From: a virus
Taxonomy: Duplodnaviria; Heunggongvirae; Uroviricota; Caudoviricetes
IMG/VR virus record: IMGVR_UViG_2909246061_000002
Coordinates: 1 to 44,333 of that record
Direction: 5' to 3' (one strand)
Length of the DNA: 44,333 bases
A model generated the notes under the pieces. That model ran no database searches, was not told where the DNA came from, and saw only the letters and a program-made list of their open reading frames with translations. The translations under genes and the position numbers were made by a program. This document shows positions 15,238 to 21,161 of this stretch, piece by piece. Position 1 is the stretch's first letter; every line of letters begins with the position of its first letter.

Positions 15238-15407
15238 TGCGATGTTATCGGTGCGGTGAATGCAAAGAAGATAACCGCTTCCGACCAAATCAACCTTACT
15301 GGAATCGATGGTGTCTCCGGTGTGAAAGAACACCAACAGGGGTGTTACCACTACCGCAGGAAAAGGAGGACGTGTGGCGAGACAGCGACGAAGTATCACC
15401 GACATAA
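15234..15407 (+). CDS. NinD-like small Cys-rich protein, 57 aa (below ORF-track cutoff)
   Basis: ATGA overlap with the preceding stop; translation [16 protein letters not shown]... with CxxC pairs. Confidence 0.5.
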
Positions 15408-15556
15408 TCTGCGAAAACTGCAAATACCTTCCAACGAAACGCACCAGAAATAAACCCAAGCCAATCCCAAAAGAATCTGACGTAAAAACCTTCAACTACA
15501 CGGCTCACCTGTGGGATATCCGGTGGCTAAGACGTCGTGCGAGGAAAACAAGGTGA
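15374..15556 (+). CDS. ninE: NinE-like protein
   Basis: GTG start with AAGGAGG RBS; translation [21 protein letters not shown]... matches lambda NinE as I recall it. Confidence 0.75.
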
Positions 15557-15663
15557 TTGACCAAAATCGAAGTTACGAACAAGAAAGCGTCGAGCGAGCT
15601 TTAACGTGCGCTAACTGCGGTCAGAAGCTGCATGTGCTGGAAGTTCACGTGTGTGAGCGTTGT

Positions 15664-16202
15664 ATATATGAATGCTTAAATATGGTGGAACATAATGAGA
15701 AATATAAGCAACATAGACGAATTAAGAAATAAATTATCATATGATGATGTTTTAGGTGTACTTAGATGGAAAGTGTCTCCTTCTAATAATGTTAAGGTTG
15801 GCAGTGTTGCTGGTTACATTAGGAGTGATGGTTATAGGATGTTAACTATCGATGGTGTAATTACTTATGCTCACCACGTTATATGGATGATAAATAATGG
15901 TGAGATTCCATTAGGGTATAAAATTGATCATATAAATGGAGTAAGGTCAGATAATAGGCTATCTAATCTTCGATTGGTTACACACCAACAGAATGCACAG
16001 AACCAAAAGAGAAAAATAACCAATTCGTCAGGAGTGACTGGAGTATATTTCAATAAAGAGAGATGTAAGTGGATTGCGAATATATGCGTAGATGGGCGCA
16101 CCAAATATCTTGGAATATTTGCTAGCATCATTGACGCTATTGCAGAAAGGAAGAGGGCAGAAAAAGAACTGGGTTTTCATGAAAACCATGGCAGACCATA
16201 AC
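15664..16202 (+). mobile_element. free-standing HNH homing-endonuclease gene insertion
   Basis: AT-rich 539-bp segment precisely between the two Cys codons of ninF; carries one HNH-AP2 ORF. Confidence 0.7.
15695..16201 (+). CDS. HNH homing endonuclease with AP2-like DNA-binding domain
   Basis: 168 aa; HNH motif IDHINGVRSDNRLSNLRLVTHQQN; C-terminal AP2-like SGVTGVYFNKERCKWIANICVDGRTKYLGIF. Confidence 0.8.
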   Translation: MRNISNIDELRNKLSYDDVLGVLRWKVSPSNNVKVGSVAGYIRSDGYRMLTIDGVITYAHHVIWMINNGEIPLGYKIDHINGVRSDNRLSNLRLVTHQQNAQNQKRKITNSSGVTGVYFNKERCKWIANICVDGRTKYLGIFASIIDAIAERKRAEKELGFHENHGRP

Positions 16203-16254
16203 TGCGCAGAACTGATGAGCGATCCGAATAGCTCAATGTACGAGGAAGAAGACG

Positions 16255-16866
16255 ATGGCTAAACCAGCGCGAAGACGATGTAAAAACGATGAATGTCGGG
16301 AATGGTTTCACCCTGCATTCGCTAATCAGTGGTGGTGCTCTCCAGAGTGTGGAACAAAGATAGCACTGGAACGACGAAGCAAAGAACGCGAAAAAGCGGA
16401 AAAAGCAGCAGAGAAGAAACGACGACGAGAGGAGCAGAAACAGAAAGATAAACTGAAGATTCGAAAACTCGCCTTAAAGCCCCGCAGTTACTGGATTAAA
16501 CAAGCCCAACAAGCTGTAAACGCCTTCATCAGAGAAAGAGACCGCGACTTACCATGTATCTCGTGCGGAACGCTCACGTCTGCTCAGTGGGATGCCGGAC
16601 ATTACCGGACAACTGCTGCGGCACCTCAACTCCGATTTGATGAACGCAATATTCACAAGCAATGCGTGGTGTGCAACCAGCACAAAAGCGGAAATCTCGT
16701 TCCGTATCGCGTCGAACTGATTAGCCGTATCGGGCAGGAAGCAGTAGACGAAATCGAATCAAACCATAACCGCCATCGCTGGACTGTCGAAGAGTGCAGG
16801 GCCATCAAGGCGGAGTATCAGCAGAAACTCAAAGACCTGCGAAACAGCAGAAGTGAGGCCGCATGA
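16255..16866 (+). CDS. ninG: NinG (Rap)-like recombination endonuclease
   Basis: 203 aa; Cys-rich N-terminus and overall match to lambda NinG as I recall it; overlaps the ninF 3' fragment as in lambda. Confidence 0.85.
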
Positions 16867-17487: not shown

Positions 17488-17937
17488 GTTTGCACAACAG
17501 GTAAGAGCATTGAACCCGCAGACCTCGCGGAATTGGTGAAAGGTGCCGCGCAGTGCTCTTATCGTTGTGGTGAAGCTCAATGGCGAGCTAGCAGATAGGC
17601 GACAGTGAAAATACTAGTCATGTAGCTGACCGCCGCGCGTACTGCAATCGGCAGCGCACCGATGGAAGCCGGTTCGATTCCGGCCGCCACAACCCAAACT
17701 GAGCCGTAGCCACTGGCTATCCTGAATTCATCAGTGATAGTTACGCTGCGGCCTTCTACACATGACCTTCGTGAAAGCGGGTGGCATGAGGTTGCGCTAA
17801 CAACCTCCTGCCGTTTTGCCCGTGCATATCGGTCACGAACAAATCTGATTACTAAACACAGTAGCCTGGATTTGTTCTATCAGTAACCGACCATATTCCT
17901 AATTAAATAGAGCAAATCCCCTTATTGGGGGTAAGAC

Positions 17938-20663: not shown

Positions 20664-21161
20664 ATGGCAAAGCTCACAGACAAACAAGAGCTGTTTGCCC
20701 ATCCGGATGATGTGTATGTCGGAGAGTGTGTGATTTATACCGGCTACATAAATAAGCGAGGGTATGGGCAGAAGCACATTTCACGAAAGCCGCACTACGC
20801 ACATCGAATCGCATACTGCGAAGCTAACGGAATTTCGCTAGATAGCATCAAGGACCTGGTTGTTAGGCATAAATGCGATAATCCATCATGCGTGAATCCT
20901 GACCATCTGATTATAGGTACTGTCGCTGACAATAATCGTGACAGGTCAAGGCGAGGCAGAAACTCATACCCTGACCGTTCAGGTGAAAAGAACGGAATGG
21001 CGAAATTAAAAGAGTGCGATGTCATCTGCATTCGCCGCGAGTATGTGCGCGGGAGTGTAGGTAATGGGCTTAGGTCTTTAGCAAAGAGATATGGCGTATC
21101 CACTACCATGATTGCTGACATCGTTAATCATAGAAATTGGAGCAATGTTTCGGAGGTGTGA
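20664..21161 (+). CDS. HNH endonuclease (terminase-associated type)
   Basis: 165 aa; HNH-like motif VRHKCDNPSCVNPDHLIIGTVADNNRD; immediately upstream of the terminase small subunit. Confidence 0.75.
   Translation: MAKLTDKQELFAHPDDVYVGECVIYTGYINKRGYGQKHISRKPHYAHRIAYCEANGISLDSIKDLVVRHKCDNPSCVNPDHLIIGTVADNNRDRSRRGRNSYPDRSGEKNGMAKLKECDVICIRREYVRGSVGNGLRSLAKRYGVSTTMIADIVNHRNWSNVSEV

Follow-up and report, generated by a model that had tools for sequence, protein, structure and literature searches.

In a prophage of Escherichia coli strain E308 whose early region is lambda-like, the ninF gene of the nin operon is interrupted by a 539-bp segment that encodes an HNH endonuclease with an AP2-like domain. 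The prophage was analyzed within IMG/VR record IMGVR_UViG_2909246061_000002, positions 1 to 44,333; this whole stretch of 44,333 nucleotides (NZ_CP030281.1 1422034-1466366) is referred to here as the window, and coordinates given without an accession are window positions. We consider it probable that the segment is a free-standing HNH-AP2 homing endonuclease gene (HEG) that resides in ninF and spreads by gene conversion among lambdoid prophages. Indeed, it is inserted at one site that is empty in most ninF-bearing genomes, it is carried by unrelated ninF haplotypes, and its open reading frame (ORF) bears the marks of purifying selection.

A 539-bp insert within the ninF reading frame

Megablast comparison of positions 15300-16500 with phage lambda gave two aligned pieces, covering 662 of the 1,201 bases at 98.8% identity, with a net insertion of exactly 539 bp. 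The match to lambda ninF is base for base from 15553 up to 15658; it restarts at 16203 with TGCGCAGAACTGATG... (CAELM...) and runs to the stop codon at 16260-16262. The inserted segment (15664..16202, plus strand) has no counterpart in lambda. Its junction can be shifted one base leftward, to 15663-16201, as T/C at the left edge and C at the right edge are interchangeable, and under this second parse the insert ends exactly on the TAA stop codon. Once 15664-16202 is removed, a 56-aa NinF is obtained that differs from lambda NinF only by H36R and H49Y. The first-pass annotation, which was made from the sequence alone, had ninF broken after ...VHVCERC, resumed 539 bp later and restored by removal of 15664..16202, and the comparison with lambda bears out each of these statements; it fixes the boundary to within 1 nt. 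The insert is AT-rich (35.1% GC, against 47.8% and 49.4% in the flanking kilobases) and its non-coding bases amount to 31 nt before the ORF and 1 nt after it, exactly as had been read from the sequence.

Two parts of ninF flank the insert. The 5' part (15553..15663, plus strand) comprises 37 codons from the GTG at 15553 to ...VHVCERC and keeps both CxxC knuckles, CANC and CERC. The ninF frame continues after 15663 for 22 more codons inside the insert, up to a stop codon at 15730-15732. The resulting ORF (15553..15732, plus strand) thus encodes 59 aa, made of 37 NinF residues and a 22-residue insert-encoded tail, IYECLNMVEHNEKYKQHRRIKK; it matches Pfam NinF (PF05810) with an E-value of 6e-12 and is labeled 'protein NinF' in RefSeq (WP_000567004.1). 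The 3' remnant (16203..16262, plus strand), which corresponds to the NinF C-terminus, aligns with the 3' end of lambda ninF, is out of frame with the 5' part, and contains an internal ATG at 16215. In a carrier phage, the zinc-knuckle part of NinF would still be made, with its new 22-residue tail, and the acidic C-terminal tail would be lost unless translation restarts at this ATG. The nin5 deletion of lambda removes the nin region and leaves a viable phage, which makes the region dispensable; a disruptive insertion in ninF would therefore be tolerated.

A site inside a coding sequence, together with an HNH ORF resembling those of intron-encoded enzymes such as I-HmuI, the nicking enzyme of Bacillus phage SPO1, could suggest a self-splicing element, namely a group I or group II intron or an intein that restores an intact NinF. 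We nevertheless regard this as next to impossible. Such an element would have to make do with 31 + 1 non-coding bases, and an Rfam search over 15300-16500, on both strands and with E <= 1, gave no family match. A group I intron should follow a U and end in G; no parse of the insert shows the two together, its last base being C (or A in the alternative parse). Nor does the insert start with GUGYG, its 5' end being ATATAT. An intein is excluded because the length of 539 nt is no multiple of three (remainder 2) and the ninF frame runs into the stop codon at 15730-15732. The first-pass annotation had also concluded that the segment is neither a group I intron nor an intein; this conclusion stands on the 32 non-coding bases, the Rfam result and the junction bases. 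Its argument from the differing frames of the two ninF parts does not hold against an intron, because the length of an intron need be no multiple of three.

It is important to note that the insertion is no clean addition to a lambda-type allele, as the ACTGC of lambda is replaced by GTTGT (15659..15663, plus strand) directly to its left. Relative to the sequence usual in empty alleles and lambda, the changes are A>G at position -5, C>T at -4, and C>T at -1, all within 5 nt of the left junction; they convert CAC TGC into CGT TGT, and thereby His36 into Arg. These changes were followed in a carrier set of 27 loci, consisting of the window and 26 IMG/VR loci, all of which have CGT TGT. Among 118 empty alleles, none has G at -5 or T at -4, and six have T at -1. 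Counted by codon in 120 uninterrupted alleles, codon 36 is CAC in 113, TAC in 5, CTC in 2, and CGT in none, while codon 37 is TGC in 114 and TGT in 6. Positions -5, -4, and -1 are the sole flank positions completely linked with the insert. The event had been called base-precise, which is correct for the junctions, identical from carrier to carrier, but overlooks the three substitutions that accompany the insert in 27 of 27 carriers. These substitutions may have been left behind as a scar when the insert first arrived, or they may protect the carrier allele against its own enzyme; the alignments are compatible with such an immunity, without being proof of it.

The endonuclease gene and its product

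The endonuclease gene (15695..16201, plus strand) is the single ORF of the insert, lies on the same strand as the nin operon, and encodes a protein of 168 aa. The sequence GGTGGA (15684..15689, plus strand), 5 nt before the ATG, is its likely ribosome-binding site. The protein matches Pfam HNH_3 (PF13392) over residues 58-102, with 70.1 bits against a cut-off of 24.8 (E = 1.2e-19), as well as the PHROG 99 'HNH endonuclease' family (E = 3.4e-70). Its residues D78, H79, N91, and N100 align with D74, H75, N87, and N96 of I-HmuI, which we take to be the active-site (catalytic/metal-binding) residues of that enzyme. Among 42 homologues, D78, N91, and N103 are invariant, and H79, N87, and N100 are nearly so.

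The AP2 part was assigned through homologues and a predicted fold. The protein itself does not reach the gathering score of Pfam AP2 (PF00847), with 15.4-17.0 bits against 33.3 (E = 0.008-0.024) over residues 112-143. However, AP2 is matched at E <= 1e-3 by 17 of the 42 full-length homologues, the best at 3.2e-8. An AlphaFold (AF2) model built on the homologue alignment has a mean pLDDT of 89 and places three strands (117-120, 125-132, and 135-142) and a helix (145-158) at the C-terminus. This modeled domain superposes on the AP2/ERF domains 1gcc (AtERF1), 7et5 (TEM1), and 7et4 at 1.6-1.8 A over 49 residues, with probabilities of 0.99-1.00, and the top whole-chain match of the model in the PDB is I-HmuI of phage SPO1 (1u3e, probability 1.00). 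The protein is therefore, by domain match and modeled fold, an HNH-AP2 endonuclease, in agreement with the 168-aa HNH protein with an AP2-like domain that the first-pass annotation had seen in the AT-rich insert.

The variable sites of the ORF in the carrier set are 13 synonymous and 8 non-synonymous, and the ORF is intact in 26 of the 27 carriers, a pattern that points to purifying selection. Three broken copies were recorded: one with a 1-nt frameshift (L029, IMG/VR), one interrupted by an end of the insertion sequence IS1 (L027, IMG/VR), and one with an IS3-family transposase insertion (Eco_70239, L155 1263-2491, NZ_CM160040.1). Such copies fit the decay expected late in the life cycle of a HEG. 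A scan of the insert for a promoter or terminator of its own stayed at chance level, with none standing out; an insert that lacks its own promoter would be transcribed with the nin operon.

The left end of the insert and the start of the gene are predicted to fold into a hairpin (15659-15712, -10.1 kcal/mol; z = -2.8 in its 81-nt context), with GGTGGA in the loop and the start codon partly paired. In this model, the insert-linked GUUGU pairs with GCAAC at 15708-15712, within endonuclease codons 5-6. The junction substitutions may thus add two base pairs, and their contribution to the predicted hairpin is calculated at 1-2.4 kcal/mol. The structure is reminiscent of the hairpins that sequester the ribosome-binding sites of endonuclease genes in phage T4 and in Aeromonas phage Aeh1, and it might control translation of the endonuclease gene, which we put forward as an idea and not as a finding. 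A comparable hairpin signal was not detected in the diverged L152 lineage presented below (z = -0.15).

Distribution and movement among ninF alleles

The insert was found in 45 of 5,426 complete E. coli genomes, at 98.3-100% identity, including the reference enteropathogenic E. coli (EPEC) strain E2348/69. Among the matches listed in these genomes, it always lies between NinF fragments. A ninF gene is present in 1,712 complete E. coli genomes, about 2.6% of which are carriers, and it is uninterrupted in about 97% of them (about 1,700) as well as in lambda. The insert is thus polymorphic for presence and absence at one fixed site in otherwise homologous genomes, with 45 carriers against some 1,700 uninterrupted genes. 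Further copies came from 28 IMG/VR contigs and from 3 JGI metagenome contigs of E. coli type, the latter found with a 24-mer common to both insert lineages. The closest phage proteins are about 50% identical and are HNH/homing endonucleases of lytic Klebsiella and E. coli phages; in all, 3,805 phage records hold a relative of the endonuclease protein.

The junctions are identical in all 27 carriers, reading GAGCGTTGT|ATATATG ... CCATAAC|TGCGCAG, and also in the 3 metagenome contigs (30 in total). Depending on the carrier, homology to the window fails at about 70, 272, or 419 nt to the left and at about 40, 653-676, or 1,010 nt to the right, and the carriers include both types of ninF 5' module and both ninG and non-ninG downstream genes. 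In the ninF core, compared from -83 to +55 relative to the insertion, nucleotide diversity (pi) is 0.023 in carriers, with 14 haplotypes in 27 loci, and 0.024 in 119 empty alleles. The carriers share the frequent polymorphisms of the empty alleles at -80, -76, -67, +33, and +37, and rarer ones at -16, -13, and +3 occur in one carrier each. The insert itself has a pi of 0.0054, about 4-fold below that of its flanks; it is therefore younger than the alleles that carry it. Moreover, the same insert variant is found on differing flank types, for example the change at its position 529 in four carriers (L007, L014, L015, and L019).

Read from these haplotypes, the insert has been transferred many times, by exchanges that start no more than tens of bases away and perhaps as near as 13 bases on the left and 3 on the right. 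This is the footprint expected of homing with short co-conversion tracts, and it argues that a break, if any, would be made at the insertion site and not at a distance. The first-pass annotation had spoken of homing into a coding sequence; the insertion in ninF is observed, and the population data support a spread by homing or gene conversion, of which the cleavage step is the deduced part.

The haplotype pattern by itself could also result from ordinary recombination. In that case, the segment would be a passive passenger that entered ninF once, by an illegitimate event, and was then moved by homologous recombination in the conserved core, with no conversion driven by the endonuclease; the enzyme might be inactive or otherwise useful to the phage. 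Lambdoid nin regions are indeed highly mosaic, with the conserved ninF core set between variable modules, and both the low frequency of the insert and its coexistence with insert-free nin regions in the same genomes would suit a passenger. However, the insert is 4-fold less diverse than its flanks and yet sits on 14 core haplotypes among 27 carriers. For a passenger, this would mean many transfers in which the exchange points to the left and right fell some tens of bases or less from the insert, and a break at the site would make such exchanges easier. In addition, the ORF seems to be under purifying selection and has kept its catalytic residues, and the protein belongs to the standard HEG family of phages. 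We therefore consider the passenger explanation unlikely, although it is the foremost of the alternatives.

Several observations nonetheless weigh against a homing endonuclease gene. A frequency of about 2.6% is low for a driving element, and the free recombination of lambdoid phages could yield the haplotype pattern without endonuclease-driven conversion. No match to the insert DNA was obtained in 50,697 deposited phage genomes (blastn, word size 11), and its junction was found in none of the representative genomes of 100,044 species. Some carrier genomes have several other nin regions without the insert, and Z1323CEC0006 has 6 places that match the nin query and 1 copy of the insert. Finally, we infer the cleavage activity and the target site of the enzyme from the data presented here, as we do immunity and the timing of expression.

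Purifying selection on the ORF would also be expected of a domesticated nuclease, kept for a benefit to the phage such as cutting competing lambdoid genomes or taking part in recombination with NinB and NinG, its position in ninF being incidental. The neighborhood of the recombination genes for NinB, NinG, and Rap agrees with such a role, as do the different HNH genes that other prophages carry where ninF meets ninG. Yet the gene is found in no more than about 2.6% of ninF-bearing genomes, and some of its copies are broken by an IS or a frameshift, which a selfish element fits better; besides, the exclusion of competitors would be mechanistically no different from homing. Domestication is, in our view, improbable, and clearly more so than a passenger.

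A second lineage of the insert occupies the same site. The Logan contig SRR25288770 (909 bp; L152) holds a diverged copy, with 85% protein and 80% DNA identity, which sits after ...IHVCEKC of a diverged ninF-like gene and has the same left junction, TGT|ATATATG. Codon 36 encodes Lys in this lineage. The 3' end of the copy is rearranged, such that the endonuclease ORF runs into the ninF tail, and a YbcO-family gene comes next, with no ninG there. Two matches considered as an empty-site allele of the L152 lineage were rejected, both being chance similarity in unrelated DNA. Although the copies in E. coli hardly differ from one another, the presence of L152 at the same site indicates a long-standing association between element and site.

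The event had been described as recent, and this we could not uphold: the same insert and junctions are present in many prophage backgrounds, an 80%-identical lineage sits at the same site, and no near-isogenic empty partner was found. Since the closest empty-site relative of the ninC-ninG stretch is lambda, at 98.7%, a recent arrival in the E308 prophage cannot be demonstrated. The second lineage might instead suggest an ancestral arrangement, in which ninF was originally two genes flanking the HNH gene and the uninterrupted form arose by deletion. Against this, ninF is uninterrupted not only in the great majority of ninF-bearing E. coli genomes but also in lambda, P22, 21, 434, and others, the GC content of the insert is 13 points under that of its flanks, and the two halves join into one conserved 56-aa protein recognized by Pfam. 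We give an ancestral split hardly any credence.

For the homing endonuclease gene, the following sequence of events can be proposed. The gene would be transcribed with the delayed-early nin operon, and its product hence made in lytic growth only. In a cell where the carrier phage replicates alongside a lambdoid genome whose ninF is uninterrupted, the empty allele would be nicked or cut by the enzyme at, or a few bases from, ...GTGTGTGAGCACTGC|TGCGCAGAACTG..., a neighborhood that is the most conserved part of ninF. In the empty ninF of lambda, the insertion point reads ...GAGCACTGC|TGCGCAG..., which is the predicted target neighborhood. Homologous recombination with the carrier allele would then repair the break and copy in the endonuclease gene. 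The carrier allele would be protected by the insert, which divides its site, and by the changes at -5, -4, and -1. A more specific version is tentative and, on balance, doubtful: the segment may be a naked HEG whose recognition site spans its own insertion point in a coding sequence, as with enzymes encoded by introns and inteins, but without a splicing element to rescue the host gene, and the three linked junction substitutions may form an immunity patch, perhaps as part of a hairpin that throttles translation.

If this version holds, the element would function as a gene drive between co-resident lambdoid prophages and be a natural example of the stage that precedes association with an intron or intein. 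To our knowledge, nearly all work on HEGs concerns lytic phages such as T4, SPO1, and T7-like phages, while lambda and its relatives are the best-studied temperate phages. The compact system described here is amenable to standard lambda crosses, as lambda itself has the empty site, and the population data narrow the likely target to a few bases and provide three candidate immunity substitutions. The main value lies in a tractable homing system in lambda-like phages, the mechanism itself not being new. Of the papers covered by a literature search, none ties ninF to an HNH or homing endonuclease.

Known systems, the nin region, and other features of the window

The enzyme most similar in structure over its whole length is I-HmuI, with which the D-H...N...N residues align. 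The two proteins are of similar size (168 and 174 aa), and in both the HNH motif comes after an extended DNA-binding part at the N-terminus. However, their sequence identity is only about 23%, the gene for I-HmuI is part of a group I intron that splices itself, and the DNA-binding module at the C-terminus of I-HmuI is of the helix-turn-helix type, not AP2. The insert-encoded protein has the same layout as the HNH-AP2 endonucleases of phages and cyanobacteria, in which an HNH nuclease is followed by an AP2 fold of a three-stranded sheet and a helix; it differs from them in its own AP2 score, which is below the Pfam threshold. Magnani et al. reportedly proposed in 2004 that such phage and cyanobacterial endonucleases were the source of the plant AP2/ERF domains.

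Free-standing HNH HEGs that split phage genes have been described, namely mobE in nrdA of Aeromonas phage Aeh1 and mobA in the topoisomerase gene 39/60 of T4 (PMC2988022). Like these, the ninF insert is a free-standing HNH gene with neither intron nor intein, lies on the same strand as its host gene, and splits it into two ORFs. The genes split by mobE and mobA are essential, however, and their halves reassemble into a working enzyme, whereas ninF is small and dispensable and its 3' remnant has no obvious start. Further differences are the host, here a temperate lambdoid prophage, and the enzyme, which is of the HNH_3 plus AP2 type and not of the Mob type. Another HEG splits nrdD in Felix O1-like phages (PMC4837284).

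Other HNH genes are found directly after an intact ninF in E. coli prophages, at L153 1636-2145 (NZ_AP022003.1) and L154 1636-2202 (NZ_CP076272.1). One of the two is a NUMOD4-HNH gene, and the other is a PHROG 99 HNH gene located between ninF and ninG. The L154 protein belongs to PHROG 99 and is 36% identical to the ninF-insert protein. Like the nrdD HEG and the ninF insert, these two endonuclease genes have a fixed place in phage genomes that are otherwise collinear. The L153 and L154 genes leave ninF intact, being located between it and the next gene, whereas the insert interrupts the reading frame. Endonuclease genes appear to land recurrently at the ninF/ninG boundary, which has the look of a hotspot.

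The nin operon of the window has the order ninB, dam, ninC-like (PAPS reductase family), ninD, ninE, ninF, ninG, and Q. The downstream neighbor, ninG (rap; 16255..16866, plus strand), matches Pfam NinG with an E-value of 1.5e-91, and its start codon (16255-16257) falls in the region of overlap with the remnant ninF stop codon (16260-16262). Because of this overlap, translational coupling between ninF and ninG, if any, is probably disturbed by the insert. Upstream of the insertion, ninF alleles have 5' modules of two sharply different types (one of them SPSQSLQYQK...) on one conserved core, with the module switch about 84 nt before the insertion site (positions -111 to -84; window 15553-15580); the mosaic of nin modules thus has one of its joints within ninF itself.

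The pieces of the locus are labeled 'protein NinF' (twice) and 'HNH endonuclease signature motif containing protein' in RefSeq. The annotation pipeline (PGAP) cuts the intact 168-aa ORF to an 18-codon 'incomplete' pseudogene (window 15887-15940), and it starts a second 'protein NinF' at an internal TTG at 16110 (16110-16262), which overlaps the endonuclease gene in another frame. The double ninF call and the pseudogene call are probably annotation artifacts of the split gene. Recognition of the element corrects this problem, in which an intact 168-aa gene was reduced to a fragment and ninF was annotated twice.

The E308 prophage integration position is adjoined by a tRNA-Arg gene and yfdC. Within the window, a 127-nt stretch between the Q antiterminator and holin genes (17566-17692) has tRNA-like arms, with a 7-bp acceptor-like stem, a D-arm-like stem, and a perfect T-arm (GCCGGTTCGATTCCGGC). 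An identical sequence is annotated as 'tRNA-Arg' (127 nt) in NZ_CM160040.1 and is unannotated in the E308 genome; as a tRNA, the stretch was recognized neither by ARAGORN, also with introns allowed, nor by Rfam. The stretch may be a remnant, or a tRNA-like gene that has taken up a long insertion. The window also holds a second HNH endonuclease gene (20664-21161; 165 aa, PHROG 59). Its protein is unrelated to the ninF-insert protein, the BLASTP match between them being marginal (26% over 91 aa, E = 0.006). This second gene immediately precedes that of the small terminase subunit, where packaging-associated HNH proteins are usually encoded.

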